Assembly: GCA_964635675.1 (NCBI GenBank)
Contig: CAZWPT010000003.1
Location: 3,672 to 67,671 of the forward strand
DNA length: 64,000 nucleotides
Source of the DNA: an uncultured Nitrososphaerota archaeon
GTDB lineage: Archaea; Thermoproteota; EX4484-205; JAAOZP01
Direction of reading: 5' to 3'
This document shows positions 22,980-60,326 of this stretch, piece after piece; the first letter of the stretch is position 1, and every line of letters begins with the position of its first letter. The notes under the pieces are model-generated. The model was given only the letters and a program-made list of their open reading frames with translations. It did no database searches and was not told the DNA's origin. The translations under genes and the position numbers were made by a program.

Positions 22980-24107
22980 ATGAACTCTTGGGAAAGAGTC
23001 GTAAAAGCTATGCAGCTTTCAGCACCCGATAGGGTTCCAATCTACGAGATGCACATCCCTCCTAAAATATCTTCAGTAATATTGAATAAGAACGTGAATG
23101 AAATCATGTATGCTAATGCCGAGGCCTTCTATAACCTGATAGTGTCAAAGGCAGAGATTAATCTAGATAAGTTGAATGCGCAAGTGGCGGAGGAACAGTT
23201 AACCCTTTACAAGAAGCTTGGGTTAGATTGGATAAGAGTTGGCGGAGCCTACACCGGCATTCCAAAGAATGTTAAAAAGCTTGAAGACAACGTGTGGCAG
23301 ATAAATGGCGGACGCTACAAATGGACAGGAGATACAGCTTGGTTTCTGGATGAGCCTAAAGAATACGATCCCGATGAGGTGATAAGGGCTTGCAAGAAGA
23401 GCAGTATAAGGGTGAACACCGGTGTTTTCGACGTGTTGAAGCGGATTTCCAAAAAAGTTAAGGGCGAGGTCTTTCTATCCTTTGACGCTGACGGAACTTG
23501 GGGGCCAATAGTTTCAAATCCAAATCTGCTTAAGCATGTTCTCGTCTGGGTGTATAGAAGACCTGATGCTGTTGAAGCTCTGATCAACTATCATACTGAA
23601 ATTGCAATAGAATACGGGAGGTATGCAATCGATGAGGGTGCTGATGCGATTCAGCTCTGCGTTGACTACGGTAATAAAAATGGTCCTTGGCTTTCTCCGC
23701 CGATGTTCAGAAGATTCGTGAAACCGGCCTTAGAGAGGCATGTGAATGAATTCAGAAGAAAAGGGGCTTTTGTAGTGGTTCATTCAGACGGTTATATCAT
23801 GCCGCTGCTGGGCGACATGGTGGATGCAGGGATTAATGCCTATCAGGGTATAGATGTAATAGCAGGCATGAACCTCAAGGAAGTCAAGGAGAAGTATGGG
23901 GATAGGATTTGCCTGGTTGGGAATGTCGACCCGAGGGTAATCGAGTACGGTACGAAGTCTGATGTGGAGAGAGAGGTTGAAAGGTGTCTCAGGGAGGGCG
24001 GAAAAGAGGGGTATATACTGTCAGCATCTGCCAACATTTCTATTAACACGAATGCTGAGAACTTCATGCATATGGTGGAGTATGCTAAGAAAATGTCGTA
24101 TGCTTAG
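22980..24107 (+). CDS. URO-D/MtaA-superfamily protein, paralog 1 (uroporphyrinogen decarboxylase-like / methyltransferase-like fold)
   Basis: 375 aa. N-terminal MNSWERVVKAMQLSAPDRVPIYE. Central ...AFVVVHSDGYIMP... and C-terminal GNVDPRVIEYG...GGKEGYILSASANI resemble the URO-D/MtaA family. About 65% identical to the 31485..32612 product. Confidence 0.65.
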   Translation: MNSWERVVKAMQLSAPDRVPIYEMHIPPKISSVILNKNVNEIMYANAEAFYNLIVSKAEINLDKLNAQVAEEQLTLYKKLGLDWIRVGGAYTGIPKNVKKLEDNVWQINGGRYKWTGDTAWFLDEPKEYDPDEVIRACKKSSIRVNTGVFDVLKRISKKVKGEVFLSFDADGTWGPIVSNPNLLKHVLVWVYRRPDAVEALINYHTEIAIEYGRYAIDEGADAIQLCVDYGNKNGPWLSPPMFRRFVKPALERHVNEFRRKGAFVVVHSDGYIMPLLGDMVDAGINAYQGIDVIAGMNLKEVKEKYGDRICLVGNVDPRVIEYGTKSDVEREVERCLREGGKEGYILSASANISINTNAENFMHMVEYAKKMSYA

Positions 24108-24603
24108 CTGCTTCACCTATTTTTCCGAATCTCCGAAGCGCCTCGCATTCCTGTTGTTGAATCTCGATAACACCGTGGACTTATGACGAGGAGACAGTTA
24201 AAAAGCAGGAGATACCCTCTTCTTCACGTTTACCTTGGGGACTATTATGTATATCCTGAGGATGAGAACTGTATGTTCATAAACGATGAATACCTGGTAG
24301 GAAACCTTTTAGTGACCCAGTGGTTAAAAGCGGTTGCAATGAAAGAAGCATCTACATACTCGAGACGCATGATGCAGAGCTGGCTACAATAATTAGAAAG
24401 ACGAGGAGGGAAATCTTCAACCTGTAAAGAAAAGGATTGGGCAATGTGTGGCGCGCTAGAAGAAACCCTGTGAAACAAGTCGGTTACGAATATTTCTGAA
24501 ACGCTCCGTAATCTTAGCTATAGGCATGCTGGGTAAAAAAATGGGTAAAAAATCGCACAAGTCTTATAAACCATGGCGTTACCTTAGTTGACGGTGGTGT
24601 GAA

Positions 24604-24975
24604 ATGGAGGAAGAGAGAAAAGAAGTTGAGCTGCCTGAAGCAGAGAAGAAAAGAGAGATGACGCATCACGCTGAGGATGTTGAAGAATTGCGAGAAGTTT
24701 TGAAGACTGTTAGAGAGGAAGTACCTGGCCTCTTAAAGGATATCGTTGGTCCTCTTAAGGAGTTGATGGGTACATCATTAACGGAGGAGCAGGCGAGGGA
24801 AAGGGCTAGGGCAATAGCGACTTTCTATAAAGAATTAGTAGCGGCGGGAATGAAGGAGGATGTTGCTATCGAGCTGGTTAAAAACCAGTTTATCAGCCCA
24901 GCAGAATTAATCAAAAACGTGCTTGGGCAAACCGGCAAGATAAGAAGAGAAGAAGAGAAGGTTTTAGAGAAGTAA
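24604..24975 (+). CDS. Hypothetical charged protein
   Basis: 123 aa, rich in Glu/Lys, helical. No motif. Confidence 0.35.
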   Translation: MEEERKEVELPEAEKKREMTHHAEDVEELREVLKTVREEVPGLLKDIVGPLKELMGTSLTEEQARERARAIATFYKELVAAGMKEDVAIELVKNQFISPAELIKNVLGQTGKIRREEEKVLEK

Positions 24976-24985
24976 GAGATTCGAA

Positions 24986-25288
24986 ATGGGAAAGGCGTTG
25001 CAAATAGTCCTAATCGTAGTGGAGGCTTTAATAACTCTCATTGTATTAACCCCCGTTTTTTTATGGCTTTTGTTGAATGTTTATCTAGTCAATTACAGGA
25101 TAGGAAAGAACAGGAAGAAGATGGTGAAGATGTTGAGGAGGGAAGGCTTACCGGAGGATACTTCCATCAAGATAGCTGAACACATGTTTCCTAAAATGGA
25201 GTTTTCCCCTTGGAGGCTTAGATCCATAATGAGTGGAGGAGAATCCGGTGGGAGGAAAGAGGGGAAAACTGATTGGAAAGCAGGATAG
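24986..25288 (+). CDS. Hypothetical small membrane protein
   Basis: 100 aa, with one or two N-terminal TM helices. Confidence 0.3.
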   Translation: MGKALQIVLIVVEALITLIVLTPVFLWLLLNVYLVNYRIGKNRKKMVKMLRREGLPEDTSIKIAEHMFPKMEFSPWRLRSIMSGGESGGRKEGKTDWKAG

Positions 25289-27939: not shown

Positions 27940-27983
27940 GTCCTCTAAATGAATTTTACACTCATACCGCTGCTAGTCCTACT

Positions 27984-29138
27984 TTACTCCTTATAGAGGC
28001 CGATTTTCTTCAAAAGCTCGTAGGTGAAGTTAAGGTGTTCCACGGGAGTGTTCGGAGCCACATTGTTAGCGTCTCTGAAAACAAACTTTTTCCCTTTTGT
28101 AACTCCAGAGTCCAATACGGTTTTAACCTCCTCTTCAATCTTGCTTAAAGGACCCTGTTTAAGTGTTGTAACTCTAACACCACCCTGTATCACCACGTCT
28201 TCTCCAAGTATCTCTCTAGCCCTTCCCAAGTCTAGTGGAAACCCAGTGTCGATCGAGGAAATATTAAGCTCCTCCTTCAGGGTTTTCAGATGCTGTATAA
28301 CTGCTCCGCATAAGTGTATGCTTGGTCTTCCAGAGCAGAAAGTGTTAACTATCTTCTTATGAAGAGGGAGAACGAATTCTCTATAGGCTCTTGGAGACAG
28401 AAGCTGAATAGAGTCATCTGCAAACCCGAATCCTTCATACGGAAATGAAATCTTAAGCAATCTATGCCAAGCCTTCATTCTCTCAATTATGGATTCCGTC
28501 ATAAACCAGAGGAATTCCTCAGCTAAACTCCTGTTTAGATAGAGCATTTTAACCACGTAGCCGCCCGTAATGTTAGTCGCTATAGTGAAAGGCCCGTCTG
28601 TACCAATCGGTGCGGAGATGCTTCCAATAGGTCTTCCAAAGTAGGTGTAGCCTTCCTCCTTCTTCTTAAGGAAATATTCGTAGAAGCTTCTTACTCTTGC
28701 CATAAAGCCGGTGAAAGGCTCCGGTATGCCTTTTTTCATAAAGGTTCTCAAGTCATCAGCACTCTTCAGAAAAGGAATTATATCTGGAACACTATAGGCA
28801 GAGAAGTAGAGAGGTGCTCCGAACCATGCTGATTCATAAACGTTTTGAAACTGTACTGGAGTGGGCCATTCTCTGGGCAAACCCATTTCCCAGTCGGCAT
28901 AAACATTATGCCTCTTCCAGTATTCGAATTCGAGTTCAACCTGCAACATAGTTTCAGGATCGTTGAAAATCTTCTCATAAGTATAGTTCCTAATATTTAG
29001 CTCCTTGTTTAAAACAATCATTCTATCGTTCATTCCCCATATGACCGGGATTCTTTTATGCCTGTTTAGCTTGAAGTCTTTCCATAAGCGCAAAACCATT
29101 TCGTTGTGCTGCTCAAAACTATTGGTAGTATGCAGCAT
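27984..29138 (-). CDS. URO-D/MtaA-superfamily protein, paralog 2 (has an H-L-C-G motif)
   Basis: 384 aa. ...SGRPSIHLCGAV... sits at the position where paralogs 1, 3 and 5 have H-S-D-G. The H-x-C is reminiscent of the Zn-binding motif of MtaA-type methyltransferases. Lies immediately downstream of GH36 on the same strand. Confidence 0.6.
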   Translation of the reverse strand: MLHTTNSFEQHNEMVLRLWKDFKLNRHKRIPVIWGMNDRMIVLNKELNIRNYTYEKIFNDPETMLQVELEFEYWKRHNVYADWEMGLPREWPTPVQFQNVYESAWFGAPLYFSAYSVPDIIPFLKSADDLRTFMKKGIPEPFTGFMARVRSFYEYFLKKKEEGYTYFGRPIGSISAPIGTDGPFTIATNITGGYVVKMLYLNRSLAEEFLWFMTESIIERMKAWHRLLKISFPYEGFGFADDSIQLLSPRAYREFVLPLHKKIVNTFCSGRPSIHLCGAVIQHLKTLKEELNISSIDTGFPLDLGRAREILGEDVVIQGGVRVTTLKQGPLSKIEEEVKTVLDSGVTKGKKFVFRDANNVAPNTPVEHLNFTYELLKKIGLYKE

Positions 29139-29227: not shown

Positions 29228-31351
29228 CTATCTTACCAGCTTTAACCGGATCCTCTGCCCACAGCACCGGATTTTCAGTAAAGGCTCCTCCTGCACAGGC
29301 TCTCCTCCTTCAACCATTACTTTACCCTTAGACTTTGCAACGAGTATTCCAGGCTCTCTAAGCTTAAGAAACGCTTCGTCTTCATAAACAACCGCGTAAT
29401 CAATGCCCCGCGGCATAATATAGATGCCCTTCAATCCTATCAGTGTCAGCCAGTCGCTCCACGGTGCGAATATGAAGAGCTTCACACCCATGGGGTTAAG
29501 CTCAAAGCTGACAGATTTCTCCCACAACTCCTCGCTGAAGTATTCGAAAACTGCATACCTCTCATCCGGAAGCATTGCGTCGAAGGGGGTTACACTTCCT
29601 TTAACCGGTATGTCGTCCTTTGTGATGTTGAAAGCAGCTACCACACCGTATACTCCCACATCGCTCAAGCTAACCTTGGTGAAAACTTTAAGCGGTACTG
29701 CTTCATTGTAAGGATCGCGCATCAGTATATCTTTAGTGGGCAGTGCAGGCCCATCGGGCAACGGAAGGAAACCGTCGGTGAATGCAAGGGGTTTCACTAG
29801 TTCCGCTACGCTTTTTCCAGCTTCATCAGTAAGGTATATTGGACCGCCACTCACAGCTCTTGCTACCGCCTGCTGCAGAGCCCAAGGATCGTGACTCTGA
29901 AACATATCCCAGTCGGGCCATACGATCTGAGACATGAAAAGCGCATTGTATGCGTTAAAATAGAGGTGTAATTTGTTTCTGGATTTTTTATGAGGTACGA
30001 TGTAGTCCACACAATTTCTAGCTATCGTTGACCTAAACCAGCTGAATGCATTCTCTGGTTGCTGAGCCATACAGTTAAGAACCTCCAGTGAATTGATGTA
30101 AGCCGCTGCTTCCAGCCCCTTGTGGAGCATCTCGGCCGCCTCTCCAACAGGTATTTTAGCGGAATACGTATGGCCGACGGAAGACTGGTTATCAACCTTC
30201 ACGAAGTCGAAGCCCCATTCTCTGAGCTTAGAGTACCAGTCCCTGAAAAGATCGAATGAATCAGCGGGTTTTGGTACTAGGTTTCCCTCCACCTCCATCA
30301 AATGTTTTCCCCATCTCTCTGCTAGCTGGCTTCCCTTAGCGATTCCTCTCCAATGTATGTTAAGCGTGTGCCAAAGCCCAACGTATCTCGCCCCCATGCT
30401 CTTCAGTTTGCCAACGACATCCTCAAAACCTCCTGGAAACTTTCTCACACTGGGCTCCAAACCCTTCATACTCATATCCTCCTCGTCTTGCCACCCATCG
30501 TCAATCAAGGCAAAACCGGGTTTGATACCCTTCTCTAATAAGGACTTGAACGTAACCACTATTTTCTCCTCCGTAGGGTCACGCCAGCAAGCATTCCAAG
30601 AACACCAGCCAAGGTACTTGAAGATCTCTGGTAACGCCTTATTCTTCCTAAGTACGTCATGCTTTCCTGTAAGCGTGAAAGCGGACTCGTATGCAGATTC
30701 CACTGCTCTATAGGGGTTGCTCGAGGTCGCAAACGCGAAAAGAGGCACCCGACTCCAAGCTCCTGCTACCATCCTGTTCAGCAGGATGCTGAACTCACCC
30801 TGTTCGAACCGTGAGACGTAACCACGAGCACCCGAGTTCGAAATTGGAAGCAAGAACGCATAACTTCCTGCACCTTCGGCAATGAGTTGAGAAACCTTGA
30901 TATTCCTCGGCAAGCCTTTAAAGCCTGAAGCATGGATTGGGTAGCTCCATGCGCAATACTCGAACTCCTCCGCCTCTCTTAGCTGTGGATACTGATATGG
31001 TTCCTGTGATTCACCAAAGTATTTGTCAGGATCGTAAGTGAAGTGGAACAGGAGAAGACTTTTAAAACCTTCAAAGCTTGACCTTAGCTCAACTAGAAGA
31101 CCATTATCGCTCAGTCCATCGGCCTCAGCTGTCACAACGATGGCCTCCGGCCCCCATTCTTCGAATACCAGTTTACTCTTTCCCTCAGGGTATTTGACGT
31201 GCGCAGTACTGGCATGCAGCTCTACGGAAAGAGGATTCGAAAGCTCACCGGCGAGAGCCATCAGTGGCCTAAAGATAAGTCTAAAGCCCTCCTTTTCCAT
31301 AAGGATCTCCGAATCTCTAACCCTAAAGGATGCTGGACCCATGGAAAACAC
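29228..31351 (-). CDS. GH36-family alpha-galactosidase (raffinose-synthase-like clade)
   Basis: 707 aa. ALIDDGWQDEE (DDGW motif) and FDFVKVDNQ (K-x-D nucleophile motif) are characteristic of GH36/GalS-like enzymes. Confidence 0.7.
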   Translation of the reverse strand: MFSMGPASFRVRDSEILMEKEGFRLIFRPLMALAGELSNPLSVELHASTAHVKYPEGKSKLVFEEWGPEAIVVTAEADGLSDNGLLVELRSSFEGFKSLLLFHFTYDPDKYFGESQEPYQYPQLREAEEFEYCAWSYPIHASGFKGLPRNIKVSQLIAEGAGSYAFLLPISNSGARGYVSRFEQGEFSILLNRMVAGAWSRVPLFAFATSSNPYRAVESAYESAFTLTGKHDVLRKNKALPEIFKYLGWCSWNACWRDPTEEKIVVTFKSLLEKGIKPGFALIDDGWQDEEDMSMKGLEPSVRKFPGGFEDVVGKLKSMGARYVGLWHTLNIHWRGIAKGSQLAERWGKHLMEVEGNLVPKPADSFDLFRDWYSKLREWGFDFVKVDNQSSVGHTYSAKIPVGEAAEMLHKGLEAAAYINSLEVLNCMAQQPENAFSWFRSTIARNCVDYIVPHKKSRNKLHLYFNAYNALFMSQIVWPDWDMFQSHDPWALQQAVARAVSGGPIYLTDEAGKSVAELVKPLAFTDGFLPLPDGPALPTKDILMRDPYNEAVPLKVFTKVSLSDVGVYGVVAAFNITKDDIPVKGSVTPFDAMLPDERYAVFEYFSEELWEKSVSFELNPMGVKLFIFAPWSDWLTLIGLKGIYIMPRGIDYAVVYEDEAFLKLREPGILVAKSKGKVMVEGGEPVQEEPLLKIRCCGQRIRLKLVR

Positions 31352-31484: not shown

Positions 31485-32612
31485 ATGAACTCTTGGGAAA
31501 GGGTAGTAACGGCTATGCAGATTTCAATACCGGATAGGGTTCCGATTTATGAGTTGCACCCCTCCTTGAAAATATTTTCCACCGTGCTTGGTAAAAATGA
31601 CGACAGTATCATGGCTCATAACCCTGAAGCGTTTTTCAACCTAATAGCTTCTAAGGGAAATATTGATCTAAACAAGGTTAACGAACAAATTGCGGAAGAA
31701 CTTCTAAACCTTTATGGAAAACTCGGGCTAGATTGGATTCGCGTTGTAAAAGCTTATGTCAGCATCCCGAGGGAATTGAAGAGGATTGGCGAGCATACGT
31801 GGCAGGTAGACGGGAAAATATACAAGTGGTCGGGAGAAACCCTTTGGAACATGAGCGAGCGTAGGACCTATGACCCGGATGAGGTGATAAGAGAGTGTAG
31901 GAATAGTGATGTTGAAATAGATCCGTTAGCGTTTGAAGTGCTTAGGAAACTAGCAGCCAAGGTGAAGAAAGACATGTTCCTGTCTTTTGACGCTGACGGA
32001 ACATGGGAGCCCATAGTGTCTAATCCAAATCTCCTCAAACACGTCCTACTATGGGTTTACAGGAGGCCTGATGCTGTAGAGGCCTTAATCAACCATAATA
32101 CTGACGTTGCCATCGAGTACGGCAAGTGGGCTATAGATGAAGGTGCTGACGCAATTCAACTCTGCGTTGACTATGGGAACCAGAACGGTCCTTGGATGTC
32201 AATCGAAATGTTCAGGAAATTTGTTAAACCAGCTTTGAGAAGAGAAGTGGATGCTTTCAAGAGAAAAGGCGCATTTGTAGTTCTTCACTCCGACGGGTAT
32301 ATCATGCCCATTCTCCCCGATATTGTTGACACGGAGGTAGATGCTTACCAGTGCATCGACGTGATCGCCGGTATGAAGATGTGGGAGGTTAAGGAAAAAT
32401 TCGGAGACAAAATTTGCCTAGTTGGGAATGTGGATCCTAGGATAATAGAATACGGGACTAAAAATGACGTAGAGAAAGAGGTTGAGAGATGCTTAAGAGA
32501 AGGGGGGAGAGAAGGCTACATTCTTTCGGCTTCAGCAAGCTGTGCGCTTAACAATAACGCAGAGAATTACATTTATATGATAAACTACGTTAAGAGAAAA
32601 ACATTACAGTAA
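31485..32612 (+). CDS. URO-D/MtaA-superfamily protein, paralog 3 (close duplicate of paralog 1)
   Basis: 375 aa. MNSWERVVTAMQISIPDRVPIYE...AFVVLHSDGYIMP...GNVDPRIIEYG...GGREGYILSASASC. The DNA is also clearly similar to 22980..24107 (identical first 17 nt). Confidence 0.65.
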   Translation: MNSWERVVTAMQISIPDRVPIYELHPSLKIFSTVLGKNDDSIMAHNPEAFFNLIASKGNIDLNKVNEQIAEELLNLYGKLGLDWIRVVKAYVSIPRELKRIGEHTWQVDGKIYKWSGETLWNMSERRTYDPDEVIRECRNSDVEIDPLAFEVLRKLAAKVKKDMFLSFDADGTWEPIVSNPNLLKHVLLWVYRRPDAVEALINHNTDVAIEYGKWAIDEGADAIQLCVDYGNQNGPWMSIEMFRKFVKPALRREVDAFKRKGAFVVLHSDGYIMPILPDIVDTEVDAYQCIDVIAGMKMWEVKEKFGDKICLVGNVDPRIIEYGTKNDVEKEVERCLREGGREGYILSASASCALNNNAENYIYMINYVKRKTLQ

Positions 32613-32661: not shown

Positions 32662-33666
32662 TTGGAGACAAGGGGATTGGGTGGAAAGTTTGACGTAATC
32701 GGATTGGGAATGAGTTGTGTCGATTGCATTCTAAAGGTTGAAAGCGTTGAGAATCTGAACCGGGTAAGTGTACTCGACTGGACTATCCAGGGAGGGGGTA
32801 AGGCCTCTACCGCCATGGTGGCCGCGGCCCGTCTCGGGGCAAAAACCTCCGTGATAACGAGGATTGGGCAGGATGAGGCTGGAGAACTCATCATCTCAGA
32901 GTTTAAAAAGTATGGGGTAGACACTAGTAGAATCATTGTGCAAGAGGGATATAGTACTCCAATACTCTTCATACTTGTTGATGCCAATGGTAGTCCTAGA
33001 TGGATTGATGCTAAAGTATTAAAAGACCGTGTTCTTCCAGAGCCAGTAAAGCATATGGTTAAGTTAGCGGAAGCAAAGAACCAGTTTGTGAACAACATTA
33101 CAAGAAAACATGTTGAGGACGAGCTCGACTTCGTAACTGAAGGGAGAATACTCCTCCTGGATTGTTTTGAGCCCGAGTGTTTAGATGCGGCTATAGCTGC
33201 CAGGAAGAATAATGTTGAAACTTGTCTCGATATGTATTTTCACCCAAATCTGACAGAACTTCTCCGAAACATAACATACTGTATACCATCTAGGAGAGCT
33301 GCTGCTAATTTTACTGGAGAAACTGATCCTGAAGCCATGTGCAGAAAGCTTCTTCGCCTAGGGCCTGAAGTAGTGGGAGTGACGCTCGGCGAAGAAGGTT
33401 CTGTGTTCATGACTCAGAAGGGGGAGGTGGTGAAGCAGAAAGCCTTCAGGGTTCAGGTGGTGGATACAACTGGAGCCGGTGACGTGTTTCACGGTGCCTT
33501 CTGCTACGGCGTGGCGCAAGGCTGGAGTCTTCCTAAGACCGTGGAATTTTCAAGTGCAGTTGCAGCGCTAAAATGCAGAAGACTCGGCGGCAGGGCAGGG
33601 ATTCCCTCTCTGAACGAGACTGAGGGATTCTTAAGAAGATTTAAACAAAGCATAAATATGACTTGA
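32662..33666 (+). CDS. PfkB-family carbohydrate kinase (ribokinase-like)
   Basis: 334 aa. C-terminal DTTGAGDVFHGAF signature of the PfkB family. Confidence 0.8.
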   Translation: METRGLGGKFDVIGLGMSCVDCILKVESVENLNRVSVLDWTIQGGGKASTAMVAAARLGAKTSVITRIGQDEAGELIISEFKKYGVDTSRIIVQEGYSTPILFILVDANGSPRWIDAKVLKDRVLPEPVKHMVKLAEAKNQFVNNITRKHVEDELDFVTEGRILLLDCFEPECLDAAIAARKNNVETCLDMYFHPNLTELLRNITYCIPSRRAAANFTGETDPEAMCRKLLRLGPEVVGVTLGEEGSVFMTQKGEVVKQKAFRVQVVDTTGAGDVFHGAFCYGVAQGWSLPKTVEFSSAVAALKCRRLGGRAGIPSLNETEGFLRRFKQSINMT

Positions 33667-33700
33667 GTTTATACTTTCCTCTAAGGAGGTTTGTCTAAAC

Positions 33701-50522: not shown

Positions 50523-50600
50523 ATGCTTAAAGCTTTAATCATGCGAATCTGTGTAGACGCTTTCAAAAGATTTATATAAATCCTGAAACGGAAAAGCTTC

Positions 50601-53531: not shown

Positions 53532-53535
53532 TTGA

Positions 53536-54819
53536 CTATTCCGAGTTTTCAGCCCTCCAGACAGCGTAGAGCTCTCTTAGAACATCTTTCTCAGCGCCGT
53601 CAAAGTTCCAGTACACTAGGCCGTCAGCATGGCCGCGCACCGCTGATTTAACGCTTTCCACGAAAAACTCTCTGCCAACCATAGACAAGTTTGAGATGCG
53701 TTCCCCAAGGAGGCTGTGCATCGTGTCGGTTCGGACGACGAGTATGACTGGCCAGACCCTAGCGTTCCCAATGTTCCAAGAGGAGATTTTTCGTAAGCCT
53801 GCTTCAATCGAGCTTGATGGTAGCCCTGAGAGCCTTGTCTCGTCGAAGCCGCGTGGCTCAACAATGGTGCTTAAGCCCGTTGCAACATAGTAGAACTTGG
53901 TGAGAAGATCCTTGTCGACACCGTAGGCACGGCTGAGCTCCTTGACCGCTGTTAAACCCTCCCACTGCATCCAGTCGAAGTAAAGCATTGGTTCGACAAC
54001 GTCGAGAACACGGCTGAGAGCCCTGTAGCTCTGGCCCGCCAGCAGGCTCCACCATGGGGATAAAAGGTTGGCGCCCACCACTGTACCCCGGCCACCCTCC
54101 TCCTTAACCGCTGAGGCGAAAGTCGTAACAACATTCTCAATATACTCGTTCCTATACCTGAACCATTCGAACACACCTGGAAACTCGTTGTAAAGATCCA
54201 GGATGTCAGGAGTGCTTAAGCCCCCCTGTTCAACCATCTCCTTCGGGAAAAGTCCTTTGCCGAGGAGGCCCGCTAGGCTTAACCAGTCTCTCCTAATGGA
54301 GCCCGGGTCGTAGCCCAGCCGCCTCATCTCCTCGCAGCAACTGGGGCAGAAGCATGTGAGAAAGTAGTCGAAGCCAGCCATCGGGCTTTCGAACCTTATG
54401 AAGTCGAGCACAACTCCCTCAACCCCGTATATTCTGACTAGGCATCTTAGGTCGGCGACTATTCTCCTTAAAACATCAGGGTTGGTGGGGCAGGCTCTAG
54501 CGGAATGAGGCTTCCCCAGTATTGTCCACGCAGAATACTCCGCCCCTTTTTCGGCGATATCAGGCCTGCTGAAAACAGGGTAGCTCGCGAAGAACTTTAA
54601 GCCTGCTCCGCGAAGCTCCTCGACAATCCTCTTTAGCTCCCCGTATGATTCTTTCCCAGCGTCTTCTGGAAGACACTTCACCCCTTTATAGAGCTCTTCA
54701 GCCTCCTCTGGGAAAACAGGAAGATGCGTATGCACGTACTCTATGCCGTATTCTTCGAGAAGACGACCACCGTATTCCCTCAGAGCCTTTTGACTGATGA
54801 AAGCTCCTATCGGCTTCAT
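53536..54819 (-). CDS. GHL-type (glycoside-hydrolase-like) TIM-barrel protein with a CFCPSCC motif, paralog A
   Basis: 427 aa. VVLDFIRFESP resembles the DYIRYP motif of GH-like families such as GHL10, followed by a FLTCFCPSCCEEMRRLGYD Cys cluster. Confidence 0.45.
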   Translation of the reverse strand: MKPIGAFISQKALREYGGRLLEEYGIEYVHTHLPVFPEEAEELYKGVKCLPEDAGKESYGELKRIVEELRGAGLKFFASYPVFSRPDIAEKGAEYSAWTILGKPHSARACPTNPDVLRRIVADLRCLVRIYGVEGVVLDFIRFESPMAGFDYFLTCFCPSCCEEMRRLGYDPGSIRRDWLSLAGLLGKGLFPKEMVEQGGLSTPDILDLYNEFPGVFEWFRYRNEYIENVVTTFASAVKEEGGRGTVVGANLLSPWWSLLAGQSYRALSRVLDVVEPMLYFDWMQWEGLTAVKELSRAYGVDKDLLTKFYYVATGLSTIVEPRGFDETRLSGLPSSSIEAGLRKISSWNIGNARVWPVILVVRTDTMHSLLGERISNLSMVGREFFVESVKSAVRGHADGLVYWNFDGAEKDVLRELYAVWRAENSE

Positions 54820-55958
54820 TTTCCAAGCGCCTCCGAGACCCTGAGGATCCGGTTCTTCTCCTCCTCTCGGAAAGCGAAGAAATCCAGCCCGTCTAAGCCT
54901 GTTTCAACAGCCAGCTTGACAACCTCCTCGATCTGCGGATCGTCAAGCATCACGATAGGGTGAAGCTCGCTTCGGCCAGCCAGAAGCCTTTTGGAGGCGA
55001 GAAACTCCATGCTTAGAGAGGATAATGGGAGGCAGTCTTCGAAAAGCCTGTTAATGCTTAGAGGATAACCCTCCCCGGAAAAACCGAAAAACCGGTAAAT
55101 TGCCTCTAACAGCTCGCTCTCAACCAGCCAGGGATTCCGCCTTAGAAGGTCCTCAGCGATTTTAGCCAGCTCGAAGTTGAGGCAGGCGACTCCCCGCCCC
55201 TTTCTGTAGACCATGGGTTTAACGAAATCCAGGTAGCGCCAAAGCTCCTGATAGTTCTGGCCGACGAGGAAGGCTAGTGAGGGGGTGAACACGTAGGCAC
55301 CTAGGCCCGCCTTCTTGTTGTAGGACCTGATTATGTTTCTAACTTCAAGTATTAACTCTGTTACACTACGCTCCCTGAACCTAAGCCAGTCTAAGAGAGG
55401 GCTTAACCCTGCGGCAATATCCAGGATACCCGCTGGAGAAGAACGGTATGCTTGCAAAGCTTCCCAAACGTTTTTAAAATCGTAGAAGGCGTCGAGCATT
55501 TGCTTAGCAGACTTCCTCATTTCTTCGAACCGGTAGCCGTATTCCGCAGCCTTGCTCCTACAATTGTCGCAGAAGCATGTCGCAAAGGCTTCGATTCCAC
55601 TGCCCATTGAGGCAAACCGTATTCCGTCGAGCAAAACGCTGTTAACATCGTATTTCTCAACGATCTCAGAAACCTGGCTAAGAGTCCTACGTCTTATCTC
55701 AGGGTTATTCGGGCATCCTGATCCGAACCATATGTGTCTCCTCCCGTACGGGTCCTCAGCTAGAAACTGCGGGGCTTGAAACTCCTTGTCCAGCCTGAAA
55801 GCCCCGATTACAACGTGGACGTTGAAACCCTTATCTATCAGCCCCTTGATGAGCCCAGGCTCGTAGCCAACAACGATATTCTGAAAACCGTTTTCAAGGA
55901 GAAAATCAGCGTAGTTGAGATTCGGGATCCCGAACATCCAGAGCCTCAGTTTTATCAC
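54816..55958 (-). CDS. GHL-type TIM-barrel protein with a CFCDNC motif, paralog B
   Basis: 380 aa. VLLDGIRFASM and FATCFCDNCRSKAAEYGY. The stop overlaps the start of paralog A by 4 nt (tandem, co-directional). Confidence 0.45.
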   Translation of the reverse strand: MIKLRLWMFGIPNLNYADFLLENGFQNIVVGYEPGLIKGLIDKGFNVHVVIGAFRLDKEFQAPQFLAEDPYGRRHIWFGSGCPNNPEIRRRTLSQVSEIVEKYDVNSVLLDGIRFASMGSGIEAFATCFCDNCRSKAAEYGYRFEEMRKSAKQMLDAFYDFKNVWEALQAYRSSPAGILDIAAGLSPLLDWLRFRERSVTELILEVRNIIRSYNKKAGLGAYVFTPSLAFLVGQNYQELWRYLDFVKPMVYRKGRGVACLNFELAKIAEDLLRRNPWLVESELLEAIYRFFGFSGEGYPLSINRLFEDCLPLSSLSMEFLASKRLLAGRSELHPIVMLDDPQIEEVVKLAVETGLDGLDFFAFREEEKNRILRVSEALGK

Positions 55959-55990
55959 CGTGCAGTAAGCGTTGGAGACAATATTTAAAC

Positions 55991-58768
55991 GTGTCCTTTA
56001 GGCTAATGGGAAAATTTTTTAGCACGTGTTTCAATGTTTCTAAGAAAAGGTGTCTGCTCGCTATGGAGAACTGGATCTTGGGAACCGAGGTCAGGAGCGT
56101 CGCGTCGAACGTTAGGCTCCCTTTTAACCGCCTCATAGTTCTCAACGATGGATGGATGTTTACAACCGATTCTGAGGAAAAGCTGACACATGAGGCAGTC
56201 AGCTCCGTGAAGGAAGCCAGGAGGGCTAGAGCGGGCCTACCTTGGGAAGCACAGTTCCCGGATCTCATAGACTACGACGGGGCTGCATGGTATTGGCGGG
56301 ACTTCAGCATCCCCGAGAGTCTTAAGGGTAAGAGGATAATCCTAAGGTTCGACGCCGCGGACTATGAGGCCACAGTATGGTTGAATGGGGTTGAGCTCGG
56401 CTCCCATAAGGGAGGCTACACTCCCTTCGAATTTGAAGCGACGAGTATCGTCAAGTTCAACGGTGAGAATAGGCTGGTTGTCAGGATTTACGACCCTAAG
56501 GATTGCTCCGAGGTTCCGAACGGCAAACAGTCCCATTACTGCAATATCGGCGGCCTCTGGCAGGGGGTTAGCATCCTTATCAGAGAGAAGGTTTACGTGC
56601 ACTCAGCCTTCGTAGTGCCGGATGTTGATAACTCTAGGATTATGGTTCGCCTAGTTCTTTCCCACGCTGAGGAGGCTCCTGGGGAAGGGCTTAGGCTAGT
56701 CCTCAGGGTTTCTCCAACAGGTGAGGAAAGGATTGTTGAAGTATCGAGGGGGAGACCTGTCTACGACGTGGAGATACCTATCCGTGAACTGAGACCATGG
56801 TCTCCAGAATCCCCATTTCTATACAGGCTTGAGATAATTCTCTTCGGGGAAGGGGTTGAAGACGCTTGTTTCGTAGACTTCGGAATGAGGAGGATCGAGG
56901 CGCGGGGGAACATAATCCTCCTTAACGGTGAACCCTTATACCTTATGGGAGCGCTCGACCAGGATTTCTACCCTGACGTGGTATACGGCACGCCCCCGGA
57001 CGAAACTCTTAGAGACCAGTTCCTGAAATCTAGAGAACTGGGGTTAAACTTTCTGAGGACCCATATTAAAATCCCGTGTCCAAACTACCTTGACTGGGCA
57101 GATAGGCTTGGAGTCATGCTTTGGATCGATTTTCCGAGCTTCTACAAGTTCACCGAGGAGGCGAAGAAAAGGATGAGGAGGGAGCTTGAAGAATGGATTT
57201 GGAGGGATTTCAATCATCCCTCAGTCTTCTGCTGGTGCCTTGTCAACGAGGAGTGGGGTGTTCCGCTTGCTGAAAACCCGGAGGCTAGACAGTGGCTTAA
57301 AGAAATGTGGCTGCTGGTTAAGAAGCTAGACCCCACTAGGCTTGTCGTAGACAATTCTCCCGCGAACGCGGGTCACATCGTTAGCGACATAGAGGACCAG
57401 CATGTCTACAAGGCTATACCCGACCATGCTTGGGAGTTCGAAGAGTGGGTTGAGGATTTTTCTAAACACCCAGCCTGGACTTTCAGGTTTCCCGAATCTG
57501 AGAGAAGGGGTTTTGAACCCCTGATGGTTTCAGAGTTCGGCAACTGGGGGCTTCCGGATGTTGAGGAGATTCTCCGTTACTATGATTGGATAGACCCATA
57601 CTGGTTTAACCAGGCGAGCTACGGCGGGCCAATTCGTACAGGTATTAACGAGTTCTTTAGGCTAAGGTTGGATGAAGCTTACGGCTCGTTGAAAAAGCTT
57701 TCGGAAGCTACTCAAAAGCATCAGCTTGACTCCCTGAAGTTTGAGATAGAAACAATGAGGCTTCATCCCGAGATAGTTGGCTACGTAATAACCCAGTTTA
57801 CAGATTTGAACAGTGAGAGCAACGGCCTCATGGATATGTGCAGGAGAGAGAAATTTTTACACCGTTTCATGAGATTATTCCAAGCGCAGGATGTTGTCGT
57901 AATAAGGCCTAGAAAATGGAGTTACCTCGAGGGTGAAGAAGCCAGGGTGAAAATATATGTTTCAAGGTTTTCAGCTGTTGAGCCGAAGACTGTGGAATGG
58001 TGGGTTGAAAACACTCCTCTGAGCGGTGTATTAAAGAAGGTTGAGGTTAAAAGGGCTGGTTGCGTTGAGGTTGGAGAGGCGTGTTTCAAGGTTCCAGAGG
58101 CCCACCATCCGGGGAAGCTAACCGTATGGGCAAGGCTGCTGGACGACGGTGGGAGAGAGGTCTCTCGAAACTACCAGGAGCTTCTGGTCCTACCGTCATG
58201 GTCCGTCAGGACCAGTGGGGAAATACGCGTGTTCGGAGTGGAAGAGAACATTGTGGAGAAGCTTAAGGAGACGGGCTTAACCATCGCTGAACCCGGTGAA
58301 TCCAGCATAGCCGTATCTTTAGGGCTTGTTGAAGAGGCTATTAGCCTTGTTGAGAAAGGGGGTAGGGTACTCTTTCTCCTAGAAGAGGTGGAGGCGGGGT
58401 CGTTATTATTCAGCAGATTCCGACTGGCCGATAGGAGGGAGAAAGGACGCTGGGGGGACTGGTGCACATCATTCCTCTGGCTTAAGAATAATGTTACGGG
58501 CAGGCTTTTTTACGAGGGACACTTGGGAATGCCGTTCATAGAATGTGTTCCAAGCATGGTTTTAGAAGCTCTAAGCCCCGGCGACATGAGGAACGCTCTA
58601 GGCGGGATTTTCCTCGGCTGGATGCGGGAGCCGGCTGCTACAATAGTTACCGTCAAACTGGGCCTCGGCCTCGCCGTCCTCTGCACTTTCAGGCTGATTA
58701 AGAACCTCGTTAAGGACCCTGTTTCAACCGCACTATTCTGCTCGCTGGTTGACCTAATGGTTTCATAG
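55991..58768 (+). CDS. GH2-family glycosidase (beta-galactosidase/beta-mannosidase/beta-glucuronidase-like)
   Basis: 925 aa. GH2 sugar-binding domain (AAWYWRDFSIPESLKGKRIILRFDAADYEATVWLNGVELGSHKGGYTPFEF) and TIM-barrel region with WCLVNEEWG. The true start could be 56006 (TATA-like AATATTTAAA 26 nt upstream) or 56063 (MENW). Confidence 0.8.
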   Translation: MSFRLMGKFFSTCFNVSKKRCLLAMENWILGTEVRSVASNVRLPFNRLIVLNDGWMFTTDSEEKLTHEAVSSVKEARRARAGLPWEAQFPDLIDYDGAAWYWRDFSIPESLKGKRIILRFDAADYEATVWLNGVELGSHKGGYTPFEFEATSIVKFNGENRLVVRIYDPKDCSEVPNGKQSHYCNIGGLWQGVSILIREKVYVHSAFVVPDVDNSRIMVRLVLSHAEEAPGEGLRLVLRVSPTGEERIVEVSRGRPVYDVEIPIRELRPWSPESPFLYRLEIILFGEGVEDACFVDFGMRRIEARGNIILLNGEPLYLMGALDQDFYPDVVYGTPPDETLRDQFLKSRELGLNFLRTHIKIPCPNYLDWADRLGVMLWIDFPSFYKFTEEAKKRMRRELEEWIWRDFNHPSVFCWCLVNEEWGVPLAENPEARQWLKEMWLLVKKLDPTRLVVDNSPANAGHIVSDIEDQHVYKAIPDHAWEFEEWVEDFSKHPAWTFRFPESERRGFEPLMVSEFGNWGLPDVEEILRYYDWIDPYWFNQASYGGPIRTGINEFFRLRLDEAYGSLKKLSEATQKHQLDSLKFEIETMRLHPEIVGYVITQFTDLNSESNGLMDMCRREKFLHRFMRLFQAQDVVVIRPRKWSYLEGEEARVKIYVSRFSAVEPKTVEWWVENTPLSGVLKKVEVKRAGCVEVGEACFKVPEAHHPGKLTVWARLLDDGGREVSRNYQELLVLPSWSVRTSGEIRVFGVEENIVEKLKETGLTIAEPGESSIAVSLGLVEEAISLVEKGGRVLFLLEEVEAGSLLFSRFRLADRREKGRWGDWCTSFLWLKNNVTGRLFYEGHLGMPFIECVPSMVLEALSPGDMRNALGGIFLGWMREPAATIVTVKLGLGLAVLCTFRLIKNLVKDPVSTALFCSLVDLMVS

Positions 58769-58811
58769 GAGGCTTTCAATCTGTTTTGCCCGGGCACGCG
58801 TGAAAATCGGT

Positions 58812-60326
58812 TTAGAAAGACAGTAACACTTGCCAGATGAACAAGTATCCGAGCGAGTCGATCTCCTCCCAGACCCTTTTTAACAGACCCTCGTCCCCAG
58901 AGATCTCTGCAATCTCCCTGCGTTTCTCATCCCAAGGAATGCAGGAACCAGGTTTCACCCCCGGCTTTTTCAGCGTGGCTTCCGGCATACTAGCAACCCT
59001 TTCCAGACTAGAATGCTTCAAGCCCTCGGAGCCTCGTTCATACTTGCCATAGTTGCGTGTAAAATCAGTCATCGCCTTCACGTTTTCCACCTTGGCATCA
59101 TTCTGAATAATCGCTGACGCATCCATGATGTATCCTCCGTCTGAAGAAATAGTGTCAATGATCTTCTTGCAGTAGCGACGAACCTCGTCAGGCGTCCCGA
59201 TGGTAAGCAGCCAGTTGGGCAGGCCTCCGCTTAAACAGAACCTACGGCCTAGTTTCCTATGTGTTTCCGAGACATCGCTTCTATCTATGTGGAAGACTAT
59301 GCTGCCCTCGGGCAGTTCTGCAAAACTGTCTAAGTGTGGTGTCCAGTCTCCTTCAGCGTAGAAAAGCACCCGGTGCCCGTGGGACCAGAGCTCCTCCACG
59401 ATAGGCTTCAGAGTACGCCAATGAATGTTTTTAAAATGGTTCATGCTGATGAACGGTATAGAGGTGCGATGCATCCAGAAGCCTATGGGTATTTTCTTCT
59501 CAGGGTCGGCGGTCATGCGTGCAACCTCTGCCAAGTGTGGGGCGAGTGCTTCACAGGCTTCAAGCACCTTTCCAGGCTGCCTGTGTAGATCCTTAGCTAA
59601 GCCAACATAGCCGCGCAGCTTATCGGCAATAATATCAAGAGGGGCTTTGAGAATACCGGCTATAGCGGATACGGTTCCAGCCTCCCTCCTCATTCTCTCC
59701 ACCTGGGGTCCAAACGCGTTAAAGTATTCACTCATCGCCATGGCTCCCTTTACAAGCGCAAGCCTGCTCCGATATTGGCAGCCAGACGCTTCCGCACCTA
59801 TATCGCTTGAAACACGTGGCAGCCAGACGTTGTACAGGAACGCCGTAGGGTCGTCGATCAGCAAGTTATACTCATTTGGCTTCATAAACGCTTTCTCCTC
59901 AGGAGGCTCAAGATACTGGAATGCCGTCTCGGGAGGAATGTCTACGCCGGGTATAGCATAGTATTTCAGGCCCAGGGCCTGCGTCAAACCCGTCCAGACG
60001 TAGACCATGTTGGCGACCATCGCATCCCAGTCGAAATCCCTGGCGCATTTCAACACTGCTTCAAAAGCCTTCCTGTAGTCGTGCGTCACCTCCTGACAGG
60101 TATAGCCGGCATACTTCGCGGTAAACTCGGCGACGAAAGGGCGAATCGGGATGCAATCAGGTTTTTCATTACACATAGCGGTTAAATAGCGTTTTAACCT
60201 CTCCTGGTAAAGCTGCTCTTTTTCACCCATCTCAACGGCCCCCGTCAGTCTCAGTATTTCAACCAGCCTCATCCTTAAATGCTTTGCACCGTTGGAAGAA
60301 GAATTAGAAGGCTCTCGACTTTTCAT
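58812..60326 (-). CDS. Distant URO-D/MtaA-superfamily-like protein, paralog 6 (longer, with N-terminal extension)
   Basis: 504 aa. The C-terminal ...CLSGGLPNWLLTIGTPDEVRRYCKKIIDTISSDGGYIMDASAIIQND parallels ...CLVGNVDPRVIEYGTKSDVEREVERCL..GGKEGYILSASANISIN of paralog 1. The H-x-[CD]-G position reads FYAEGD here. Confidence 0.45.
   Translation of the reverse strand: MKSREPSNSSSNGAKHLRMRLVEILRLTGAVEMGEKEQLYQERLKRYLTAMCNEKPDCIPIRPFVAEFTAKYAGYTCQEVTHDYRKAFEAVLKCARDFDWDAMVANMVYVWTGLTQALGLKYYAIPGVDIPPETAFQYLEPPEEKAFMKPNEYNLLIDDPTAFLYNVWLPRVSSDIGAEASGCQYRSRLALVKGAMAMSEYFNAFGPQVERMRREAGTVSAIAGILKAPLDIIADKLRGYVGLAKDLHRQPGKVLEACEALAPHLAEVARMTADPEKKIPIGFWMHRTSIPFISMNHFKNIHWRTLKPIVEELWSHGHRVLFYAEGDWTPHLDSFAELPEGSIVFHIDRSDVSETHRKLGRRFCLSGGLPNWLLTIGTPDEVRRYCKKIIDTISSDGGYIMDASAIIQNDAKVENVKAMTDFTRNYGKYERGSEGLKHSSLERVASMPEATLKKPGVKPGSCIPWDEKRREIAEISGDEGLLKRVWEEIDSLGYLFIWQVLLSF

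Follow-up and report, generated by a model that had tools for sequence, protein, structure and literature searches.

What do six genes of the URO-D/MtaA superfamily do in an island of sugar-degrading genes? The question is raised by a 64,000-nucleotide stretch of DNA from a hot-spring archaeon (the window), in which six genes of Pfam family PF01208, here called p1 to p6, lie within 37 kb. Locus comparison showed that these genes are conserved in the relatives L004, L011, L013 and L020, and such a concentration, kept across relatives, is far beyond chance. Our main point is that the functional link between these URO-D genes and the genes for glycoside hydrolases and sugar uptake is real. It is conserved in archaea and in at least eight bacterial lineages. 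The URO-D sets that recur beside alpha-mannosidase and sugar uptake genes in many anaerobic archaea and bacteria suggest that carbohydrate breakdown involves a group of enzymes not yet characterised, and we found no literature on an association of URO-D-fold enzymes with sugar genes.

Six divergent members of the URO-D superfamily

The first-pass annotation assigned six open reading frames to the URO-D/MtaA superfamily, and all six are present: p1 (22980..24107, plus strand, 375 aa), p2 (27984..29138, minus), p3 (31485..32612, plus), p4 (37867..38973, minus), p5 (42150..43235, minus) and p6 (58812..60326, minus). A Pfam search for PF01208, with a gathering threshold of 23.9 bits, recognized each of them, with scores of 135.2, 79.2, 115.1, 33.6, 100.5 and 85.6 bits from p1 to p6. 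Structure prediction agreed for p5 and for p4, the weakest Pfam match. Their AlphaFold2 models (pLDDT 96.1 and 95.4) have the (beta/alpha)8 fold of the MT2 enzymes MtaA and MtbA. The best Foldseek match of both was M. mazei MtaA (PDB 4ay7), with TM 0.74 for p5 and 0.62–0.66 for p4, followed by URODs at about 0.6–0.7; MetE is a remoter structural relative (E about 1e-7). MtaA is also the best PDB match by sequence for p1 (E=8e-14), p2 (E=6.7e-5) and p5, and it shares with the paralogs the N-terminal ..DRVP.. segment, the His of H-x-C and the G-N-V motif. All six genes encode genuine URO-D/MtaA-type TIM-barrel enzymes.

Their deep divergence was borne out as well. While p1 and p3 form one subfamily with 66% identity, the other pairs are only 20–27% identical, so the six are old subfamilies and not recent duplicates; p2, for example, stands in a subfamily of its own. 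Judged from sequence, the paralogs make up at least five old subfamilies. All six stayed far below the thresholds that NCBIfam sets for HemE, MtaA and MtbA: the HemE profile TIGR01464 gave 20–63 bits where 303 are required, and the MtaA/MtbA profiles 18–105 bits where 235–600 are required. Although Pfam family and fold are common to HemE/UROD and the paralogs, sequence identity is 11–18%, and Pfam scans of the window found no other tetrapyrrole genes. The gene p6, previously described as a distant member, proved to be homologous along its full length to CdmB (PDB 9rui; E=5.7e-40 over residues 39–429), one of the MTI methyltransferases of O-demethylase and dehalogenase systems (CdmB, MtvB, OdmB, VdmB, MtoB). 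Its alignment with CdmB spans about 390 residues including the zinc-free motif region, whereas CdmB gives at best weak matches to p1–p5 (p5, E=1.7e-5) and for some of them none. Homologues of p6 comprise 277 cluster representatives at E<=1e-30, with alignments from about residue 34. The true start of p6 is likely later than annotated, at about Met32 (about 60233), and likewise that of p5 at codon 12 (about 43202).

In MtaA, a His/Cys/Cys zinc site activates coenzyme M. The motif at the H-x-C position had been said to vary among the paralogs, and it reads HSDGY in p1 and p3, HLCGA in p2, H-I-H-V-D-G in p4, HSDGN in p5 and YAEGD in p6. No paralog keeps both cysteine ligands together. In p1, p3, p4 and p5 both are replaced, with Asp in place of Cys242, and p2 retains His-x-Cys with the C-terminal cysteine gone; the residue at Cys319 is Ala (as in p1), Gly, Asn or Asp. 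The invariant His is retained in p1–p5, followed by Asp, Cys or His, and the C-terminal ends of the barrel strands bear additional conserved Asp, Glu and Asn. The motifs of p1 are H268-S-D270, D292 and GNVD, and alignments of p5 show conserved D197, D198, H237, D239, S259, Q261, N284, D286, S319 and N322. In the p4 family H256-I-H258-V-D260, E279, D306 and S341-D342-E343 are invariant, i.e. an H-x-H-x-D, E(+21) and S-D-E pattern at positions parallel to MetE and MtaA ligands. Cobalamin-independent methionine synthase (MetE) binds zinc through His, Cys, Glu and Cys, and H258, D260, E279 and D342 parallel the spacing of what we take to be the ligand positions of MetE and MtaA. Unlike in MetE, the putative ligands of p4 are carboxylates instead of thiolates, the protein is a single barrel, and there is no homocysteine or folate context. 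We infer from these residues that p1–p5 may be metal-assisted. CdmB and other MTI enzymes are part of the UroD superfamily and work without zinc (PMC13222342), so corrinoid chemistry would be compatible with the loss of these ligands.

Sugar genes around the paralogs in the window

Pfam scans recovered the neighbours reported earlier, namely a GH36-like gene, a GH38, an ADP-ribosylglycohydrolase and a GH2, together with a second GH38. On the minus strand, p5 lies 69 bp upstream of a GH38 alpha-mannosidase (39018..42080; Glyco_hydro_38N, 38C, Alpha-mann_mid and 38C2), followed by p4 and a gene of the ADP-ribosylglycohydrolase (ARH) family (36334..37800; ADP_ribosyl_GH, 142 bits). Same-strand spacing is tight (22–69 bp) here as in L007 and L008, and ARH, URO-D and GH38 genes are grouped also in L004, L020 and Bathyarchaeota B24 (L086). 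The GH36/raffinose-synthase-like gene (29228..31351, minus; Raffinose_syn, 162 bits) ends 89 bp upstream of p2. The proposed pairing of the two is seen in the window but not in the syntenic Brockarchaeota contig L004, where GH36 is absent. What L004 keeps is the trio of p2, DUF6807 (26788-27939, plus) and a xylose-isomerase-like TIM barrel (25882-26715, minus; AP_endonuc_2); the p2 orthologues of L011 and L020 adjoin the same two families. Divergent from the GH36-like gene, p3 shares 83% identity with P0032 of Brockarchaeota. Downstream of it lie genes for a PfkB sugar kinase and for a protein resembling fucose/arabinose isomerases (32662..35065, plus). The best NCBIfam match of the latter is sulfoquinovose isomerase, below the cut-off; PfkB and isomerase genes recur in bacterial URO-D loci.

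The rest of the island up to p6 (49764..58768) holds a PIG-L deacetylase, the second GH38 (50601-53531, plus), an unassigned 427-aa ORF, a weak GH42-like ORF and the GH2 (55991-58768, plus), which is convergent with p6. This block is conserved in L011, L013, L020 and L025. On the other side of p6, a xylose-isomerase-like TIM barrel (plus) and a GFO/IDH/MocA oxidoreductase (minus) occupy 60399..62424, so that p6, in contrast to the known MTI systems, is surrounded by sugar genes. With its two GH38, GH2, GH36, deacetylase, sugar kinase and isomerase, oxidoreductase and xylose-isomerase-like TIM barrels, the island serves cytoplasmic glycan catabolism. The claim that every paralog adjoins a glycoside hydrolase failed for p1, whose immediate neighbours are a flavin reductase and small ORFs. 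Between p1 and one distant relative, shared synteny is limited to Lhr-helicase.

Conservation of the association across archaea and bacteria

We compared 79 loci anchored on p5 relatives with 34 MtaB-anchored control loci. The adjacency of glycoside hydrolase and URO-D-like genes is conserved in related archaea and also in bacteria. A GH38 alpha-mannosidase was found in 27 of the 79 loci and in 0 of the 34 controls, and in 17/79 it lies directly beside a URO-D gene. Bacterial relatives of p5 (35–42% identity) adjoin GH38, and those of p4 lie within GH38 operons. Altogether 78/79 loci contain URO-D ORFs (144 in number); 32/79 carry two to five, in every case (32/32) copies of different subfamilies, and one ordered triad is common to L043, L046 and L061. 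Recurrent neighbours are sugar ABC transporters, AraC-type regulators with histidine kinases, GFO/IDH/MocA (13/57 bacterial URO-D loci), Zn-ADH, HAD, mannose-6-P isomerase, D-lyxose/mannose isomerase, PfkB, GH95 and GH43. Individual operons take the forms GFO-UROD-GH38-HAD (Vallitalea-type), GH38-UROD-HAD (Bathyarchaeia) and GH38-UROD-UROD-ADH-GFO-UROD. Mixed URO-D sets are thus found repeatedly beside GH38, sugar ABC importers, mannose isomerases and NAD-dependent oxidoreductases. Deacetylase or esterase genes are present in URO-D loci including the window. All taxa in which p5-type genes were recovered are anaerobes. In some archaea (L005, L006, L009) p1 or p5 orthologues have no glycoside hydrolase neighbour.

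Corrinoid partners and possible functions

The paralogs had been said to have no corrinoid partner, and none is encoded in the window: an MtaC-type HMM gave no match at E<=1 against the six-frame translation, and Pfam scans found no B12-binding domain in the larger ORFs. The surroundings of p6, 10 kb on one side and the 3.7 kb of window on the other, encode neither a corrinoid protein nor an MTII nor an activating enzyme. Just 2/79 p5-anchored loci have a corrinoid protein within +/-10 kb, and neither pterin-binding MTII nor RACo is among the recurrent neighbours of URO-D loci. A sugar catabolism context with no corrinoid gene nearby sets the paralogs apart from MtaA and MtbA. We noticed no coenzyme M synthesis gene in the window or the loci and know of no report of such synthesis in these hosts. 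The claim calls for qualification, as p6 is a clear MTI homologue and the close relative L012 has mtaC-mtaB upstream, in the order GH30-like, MtaC, MtaB, unknown, p5 and p4 orthologues. In the metagenomic loci L101–L104, URO-D genes of the H-x-D type (H-T-D-G-D) lie directly upstream of mtaC-mtaB; in L104, sugar-type URO-D genes, xylose-isomerase-like TIM barrels and GFO stand beside the URO-D-MtaC-MtaB set. These MtaCB-linked URO-D genes form groups of their own (13 and 20), apart from all six window paralogs. Ten of the 11 close MtaB loci are without any URO-D gene (L099 has one distant p5-like), and MtaB adjoins a p5 or p4 orthologue in none of them, with L012 as the exception. MtaC, MtaB and the activator RACo are encoded elsewhere in the lineage, and in relatives (PMC8065059).

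As the best reading, which we hold tentatively, p1–p5 are metal-assisted sugar-processing enzymes with no dedicated corrinoid partner, and p6 is a separate, MTI-type case. The enzymes p1–p5 would bind sugars, not tetrapyrroles or thiols, and would perform steps beyond those of glycoside hydrolases, either O-substituent removal or sugar rearrangement or cleavage. Each subfamily would serve a different step or linkage, and in some loci the URO-D step may come after oxidation by the adjoining GFO/IDH/MocA and Zn-ADH. By homology, p6 would be a substrate:corrinoid methyltransferase and would depend on a corrinoid protein whose gene lies in another part of the genome. The chemistries suggested in the first-pass annotation, O-demethylation of sugars and decarboxylation of uronates, are guesses. 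Oxidative, non-hydrolytic glycoside processing is carried out on levoglucosan by LgdA/B and on C-glycosides by DgpA/BC, with GFO/IDH/MocA enzymes and xylose-isomerase-like TIM-barrel lyases or hydratases. The same partner families (GFO/IDH/MocA, AP_endonuc_2) occur beside p2 and p6 and, in many loci, beside URO-D genes, a likeness of context only; to our knowledge, the URO-D fold is part of no described system of this kind. It counts against the sugar-processing reading that we know of no characterised superfamily member acting on sugars. Further points against it are the MTI homology of p6, the L012 gene order, the mtaC-mtaB linkage in L101–L104 and the p1/p5 orthologues with no glycoside hydrolase, and the exclusively anaerobic p5-type hosts would fit oxygen-sensitive Co(I) chemistry.

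Several of these points favour a serious rival, which we consider less likely, namely that the paralogs are MTI-type methyltransferases that O-demethylate sugars and pass the methyl group to a corrinoid protein elsewhere, possibly with MtaC and RACo, in what would be an anaerobic O-demethylase system for sugars. All known superfamily members apart from HemE are corrinoid-dependent methyltransferases (PMC13222342). The zinc independence of MTI enzymes, the CdmB match of p6, the L012 and L104 arrangements, the MtaC, MtaB and RACo genes of relatives, the anaerobic hosts and the decoration-removing deacetylase and esterase genes in the same loci all fit. However, known MTI genes are usually clustered with their own corrinoid protein (PMC10989822), which is lacking within +/-10 kb in 77/79 loci, as are MTII and RACo among the recurrent neighbours, and outside L012 the p5/p4 orthologues keep away from MtaB in the closest MtaB loci. 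The GH38 link would also demand that methylated mannosides be common in guts, digesters and sediments, and three to five different subfamilies per array seem excessive for methyl removal alone.

De Anda et al. described Brockarchaeota with MtaB and MtaC and no MtaA (PMC8065059), and p5, p4 or both might be this 'missing MtaA', moving methyl groups from methyl-MtaC to a C1 carrier in an incidental sugar context. The MtaA matches of p1, p2, p4 and p5, the L012 order and the H-T-D-G-D genes upstream of mtaC-mtaB speak for this, yet we regard it as improbable: the MtaCB-linked groups include none of the six paralogs, the close MtaB loci are nearly devoid of URO-D genes, and p5/p4 relatives of Spirochaetes, Planctomycetes, Victivallales and Clostridia lie in GH38 operons in loci with neither MtaB nor MtaC. 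In addition, L087 carries a pterin-binding MTII, so its URO-D gene is not needed in that role. Least probable is a chance gathering of unrelated or housekeeping genes, tetrapyrrole synthesis included, in the sugar island. The orthologues with no glycoside hydrolase neighbour and the limited synteny of p1 would agree with it; against it stand the low HemE scores, the tight same-strand spacing and the excess of GH38 over the control loci, in loci that span two domains of life.

Family membership and fold of the paralogs

The first-pass annotation had assigned six ORFs to the uroporphyrinogen decarboxylase (UROD)/MtaA fold. All six were recovered in an ORF check of the window: p1 (22980-24107, +), p2 (27984-29138, -), p3 (31485-32612, +), p4 (37867-38973, -), p5 (42150-43235, -) and p6 (58812-60326, -), with probable starts at codon 12 for p5 and at about Met32 for p6. 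Each passed the Pfam gathering threshold for PF01208 (23.9 bits), scoring 135.2 (p1), 79.2 (p2), 115.1 (p3), 33.6 (p4), 100.5 (p5) and 85.6 bits (p6). Structures were then predicted for two of the six, p5 and p4, and both models superpose on the (beta/alpha)8 fold of MtaA and UROD, so that the assignment stands. In a fold search the p5 model (pLDDT 96.1) matched the methylcobamide:CoM methyltransferase MtaA (PDB 4ay7) best, with a TM of 0.74 and E=8e-16, followed by about 25 UROD entries (TM about 0.7) and then MetE. The ranking was the same for p4 (pLDDT 95.4; TM 0.62-0.66 to 4ay7), which has the weakest Pfam score of the six yet yields a confident model. The sole close pair is p1 and p3 (66% identity). 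All remaining pairs share 20-27% over partial alignments, which points to at least five old subfamilies among the six rather than to recent duplicates. Relatives of p1 are annotated in Thermoproteota, 'Thaumarchaeota' and Brockarchaeota MAGs, and a protein identical to p1 is encoded on a hot-spring metagenome contig.

None of the paralogs reached the equivalog cut-off of the HemE model TIGR01464 (302.95 bits). The scores were 62.7 for p1, 33.0 for p2, 53.2 for p3 and 19.8 for p5, and p4 and p6 gave no match to this model. Pfam scans of the larger ORFs of the window revealed no haem or sirohaem genes other than those of URO-D type. Given scores this far under the cut-off and the lack of tetrapyrrole-pathway context, a classical HemE function was rejected.

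The MtaA, MtbA and CmuA models (NF040654, NF041608, TIGR01463 and NF004889; cut-offs 235-600 bits) were likewise not reached by any paralog, the best scores being 105 (p1), 61 (p2), 88 (p3), 18.5 (p4) and 65 bits (p5), with no match to these four models for p6. The zinc ligands of Methanosarcina mazei MtaA, which we take to be His240, Cys242 and Cys319, fit the register of chain numbering in the alignment of p1 to MtaA. At these positions p1 has H, D and A, the Cys of H-x-C being replaced by Asp and the C-terminal Cys by Ala. The p5 family profile has H, D and G, with Gln at the position of an MtaA Glu; p4 has H, D and D, and p6 has Y and E. H-x-C is retained in p2, with D/N at the position of the second Cys. 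The first-pass readings of the motif at the H-x-C position, which varies between paralogs, were correct, and the full MtaA site of His-x-Cys plus C-terminal Cys was not found in p1, p2, p4, p5 or p6. With family scores under the cut-offs and zinc ligands replaced, a classical zinc-thiolate MtaA was rejected.

The most distant gene, p6, resembles the substrate:corrinoid methyltransferases (MTI). Its residues 39-429 align with residues 18-429 of CdmB (PDB 9rui), the chloromethane:corrinoid methyltransferase I of Acetobacterium, over about 390 residues (E=5.7e-40, 141 bits), a similarity that covers the full length. By homology, p6 is a protein of MTI type. CdmB, MtvB, OdmB, VdmB and MtoB have been placed in the UroD superfamily, in which uncharacterised clades were also remarked on (PMC13222342). 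CdmB does not need zinc (PMC13222342), so loss of the zinc ligands alone is not sufficient to exclude corrinoid chemistry for the other paralogs. Relatives of p6 amounted to 277 cluster representatives at E<=1e-30; no orthologue was present among the loci compared here. An MTI-style cluster of corrinoid protein, second methyltransferase (MTII) and activating enzyme was not seen around p6 in the window, which shows 3.7 kb on one side of the gene.

Carbohydrate context in the window and in other genomes

Each paralog had been described as adjoining a glycoside hydrolase (GH). This layout was borne out for p2, p3, p4, p5 and p6, and p1 proved to have no direct GH neighbour. A GH36/raffinose-synthase-like gene is followed after 89 bp by p2; p5, GH38, p4 and an ADP-ribosylglycohydrolase (ARH) form a run on one strand with gaps of 44-69 bp; and GH2 is convergent with p6. 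The rest of the island comprises a further GH38 and a weak GH42-like ORF, a PIG-L deacetylase and a GFO/IDH/MocA oxidoreductase, PfkB and a sugar isomerase, and finally DUF6807 and two xylose-isomerase-like TIM barrels. Synteny extends to a Brockarchaeota contig, L004, where p1 and the three small ORFs found downstream of it in the window are followed by a xylose-isomerase-like TIM barrel, DUF6807, p2 and p3, then ARH-p4-GH38; the GH36, PfkB and isomerase genes of the window are missing from it. Both keep p2, DUF6807 and the xylose-isomerase-like TIM barrel as a trio (window 25882-29138; L004 5480-9920), whereas the neighbouring GH36 is not kept.

Related orders occur in distant organisms. In a Bathyarchaeia MAG, GH38 is followed after 22 bp by a URO-D gene and then by one for a HAD hydrolase. 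The gene for a protein 41% identical to p5, with an identical counterpart in Vallitalea guaymasensis, stands in the order GFO/IDH/MocA, URO-D, GH38, HAD, with genes for an AraC regulator and for sugar ABC transport alongside, and that of a p4 relative (42%) in the order AraC / GH38, URO-D, URO-D, Zn-ADH, GFO, URO-D.

To assess how widespread this is, species-representative genomes were scanned with the p5-family alignment, and ORFs were called and clustered de novo in the 79 resulting loci, 22 archaeal (Thermoproteota, Brockarchaeota, Bathyarchaeia) and 57 bacterial. The bacterial loci are those of Christensenella, Blautia, Faecalicatena, Robinsoniella, Oscillospiraceae, Acetivibrionales, Spirochaetes, Planctomycetes, Victivallales, Anaerolineae, Armatimonadota, Bacteroidales and Propionibacteriaceae. 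All 79 come from anaerobic lineages or habitats. We counted 144 URO-D ORFs in 78 loci. GH38 is present in 27 of the 79 (21 bacterial, 6 archaeal) and directly adjoins a URO-D gene in 17; GFO/IDH/MocA genes occur in 13 bacterial loci, Zn-ADH in seven, and sugar-binding proteins and permeases in 17 each, all of these frequencies being lower bounds since many loci lie on short contigs. Other neighbours recurring in the Pfam annotation are AraC-type response regulators with histidine kinases, MalK-type ATPase, HAD, mannose-6-P isomerase, D-lyxose/mannose isomerase, PfkB, GH95, GH43, GDSL and SASA esterases, L-fucose isomerase and rhamnose mutarotase. In Christensenella sp. Marseille-P2438 the order is SBP, permease, permease, MalK, lyxose isomerase, Zn-ADH, GFO, three URO-D, PfkB, GH38, URO-D, RhaM, FucI and LacI. 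None of 34 control loci anchored on the methanol methyltransferase MtaB contained GH38, as against 27 of the 79. These URO-D subfamilies are very probably linked to cytoplasmic carbohydrate catabolism, especially to GH38-type alpha-mannoside catabolism.

The arrays are mixed. Clustering by BLAST score yielded more than 20 groups of URO-D ORFs, and no group is represented twice in any of the 32 loci that hold two or more full-length copies. Groups 21, 16 and 18, the last being that of p5, form an ordered triad in three loci (L043, L046, L061) and are present in a different order in L063. Apparent 1.5-kb fusions in L046, L049, L067, L068 and L079 were rejected: tblastn showed those of L068 and L079 to be neighbouring URO-D genes in tandem, and the ORF calls point the same way for L046, L049 and L067. 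At the former zinc site, group 18 has H-s-D-G-N, group 16 K-H-T-D-G-N, group 21 I-H-f-H-G together with D-C-v-C-P, F-E-R and G-N-V-H, and the p4 group (group 4) H-I-H-V-D-G with E at +21 and S-D-E. The pattern among 135 ORFs was HxD in 96, HxC in 18 and HxH in 15, and its third residue was always a potential metal ligand. Active sites of TIM barrels sit at the C-terminal ends of the strands. Conserved polar residues of the p5 and p4 models lie at, or just past, these ends and may form a putative metal site.

Corrinoid links and possible chemistry

The first-pass annotation had seen no corrinoid partner in the window. An MtaC-type HMM searched against the six-frame translation agreed, with nothing at E<=1, as did Pfam scans of the larger ORFs. 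This HMM was used in place of a D-x-H-x-x-G regex, whose matches were discarded as false positives in NrdD-type anaerobic ribonucleotide reductase. The short reading frames that separate URO-D genes in three loci (L066, L085, L043) were likewise dismissed as corrinoid candidates, since they encode a GDSL esterase and D-lyxose isomerases. Only two of the 79 loci, L087 and L012, contain a corrinoid protein. L087 is a Bacillota methylotrophy island with MtaC, MtaB, CobW, MtaC, a pterin-binding MTII, BCCT and MttB, and given this MTII its URO-D gene is not needed as one. L012, from an organism closely related to that of the window, has a GH30-like gene, MtaC, MtaB, an unknown protein of 397 aa and the orthologues of p5 (84%) and p4 (77%). 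The generality of this order was checked by a metagenome scan with the L012 MtaB. The 11 closest MtaB loci usually show MtaB, the corrinoid activator RACo and unknown-397, with an upstream MtaC ORF called in four; none has a p5 or p4 orthologue, so that L012 looks like a rearrangement.

In more distant MtaCB loci a URO-D gene lies directly upstream, of the H-I-C...C zinc type in L111, L116 and L118. In L101-L104 the genes directly upstream of mtaC-mtaB (e.g. L102 791-1876, L104 7968-9116) carry H-T-D-G-D, the H-x-C zinc motif being replaced. Both MtaCB-linked types group apart from all six window paralogs. According to De Anda et al. (PMC8065059), MtaA is lacking in Brockarchaeota, which have MtaB and MtaC, and the H-T-D-G-D genes are candidates for this 'missing MtaA'. 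That p5/p4-type paralogs fill this role themselves is improbable. The mtaC-mtaB genes of relatives also directly adjoin xylanase-type genes, GH30-like in L012 (1575-5281) and GH10 in L116 (6365-11335), an order suggestive of some connection of hemicellulose degradation with C1 metabolism.

We tentatively favour the reading that p1-p5 are corrinoid-independent, metal-assisted sugar-processing enzymes. In 77 of the 79 loci there is no corrinoid protein, MTII or activator, whereas genes of known MTI systems usually form clusters (PMC10989822). The neighbouring genes encode sugar importers, oxidoreductases, isomerases and kinases, and the active-site residues are hard ligands, not thiolates, both of which argue in the same direction. 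GFO/IDH/MocA and xylose-isomerase-like partners recall oxidative, non-hydrolytic glycoside-processing systems. The main alternative, somewhat less likely, is that the paralogs are corrinoid-dependent sugar O-demethylases served by a corrinoid protein encoded elsewhere. It draws on the precedent of characterised superfamily members, the homology of p6 to MTI enzymes, the arrangements in L012 and L104, the MtaC and RACo genes of relatives of the window organism, which encode MtaB too, and the confinement of p5-type genes to anaerobes; the genes missing from 77 loci weigh against it. Set beside the GH38 counts in the p5-family and control loci, chance clustering of the paralogs in a sugar island is very improbable.

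It is doubtful, and we offer it as speculation, that the URO-D arrays are an anaerobic route by which sugars brought in with GH38 substrates lose their methyl ethers or other O-substituents. Such stripping might proceed by methyl transfer to a shared corrinoid protein or by redox-assisted beta-elimination with release of methanol; methyl or methanol would feed MtaBC in Brockarchaeota-type archaea. In relatives, MtaBC genes adjoin GH30-like, GH10 and URO-D genes (L012, L104, L116). Aerobes remove these groups with oxygenases, and to our knowledge no anaerobic sugar O-demethylase has been described.

The known functions of the URO-D/MtaA fold are those of one decarboxylase and of methyltransferases that depend on corrinoids. 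Nothing relevant was found in the open-access literature on URO-D tied to glycoside hydrolases, GH38, carbohydrates or mannosidase. The fold itself is known; its functional setting here is undescribed and widely conserved. The analysis points to at least 20 subfamilies, none of them characterised, that travel in mixed sets with GH38, sugar importers and sugar oxidoreductases in anaerobes of hot springs, sediments and digesters, and in others of the human gut (Blautia, Faecalicatena, Robinsoniella, Christensenella). Should they act on sugars, they would be a new enzyme class missing from carbohydrate-active-enzyme catalogues and glycan-turnover models; should they depend on corrinoids, they would be the first sugar demethylases known to work anaerobically, tying polysaccharide breakdown to C1 metabolism. 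Several hosts are in culture, which makes either reading testable.

Other ORFs in and around the island

The three small ORFs 3' of p1 (123, 100 and 134 aa) keep their order in the window (24604-25677, +) and in L004 (656-1726). A fucose/arabinose-isomerase-like protein (33701-35065, +) has the sulfoquinovose isomerase SftI as its top NCBIfam match, at 159 bits against a cut-off of 700. Two ORFs, 47715-49679 (-, 654 aa) and 53536-54819 (-, 427 aa), gave no Pfam, NCBIfam or PDB sequence match; relatives (L011, L013, L020, L025) keep both within the glycan island, and the two may be carbohydrate-active enzymes that have so far escaped recognition.

A protein of 1810 aa (window 8093-15911) combines GH2-like sugar-binding and FtsX/MacB-type permease domains and is followed by an unannotated ORF of 778 aa. 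In Thermofilum (L005 1362-9974) a similar giant FtsX protein and DUF6785 adjoin the p1 orthologue, and DUF6785 is also found near GH38/URO-D in Bathyarchaeia L007. Between p5 and a GNAT gene the island is interrupted by a HEPN-domain ORF (43383-43850, +), probably a toxin-antitoxin-type element. An Lhr-type helicase lies near a p1-type gene in the window (18213-21074, +) and in L006 (11363-14239), where the p1 homologue is only 50% identical; this proximity looks like an old synteny unrelated to sugars.
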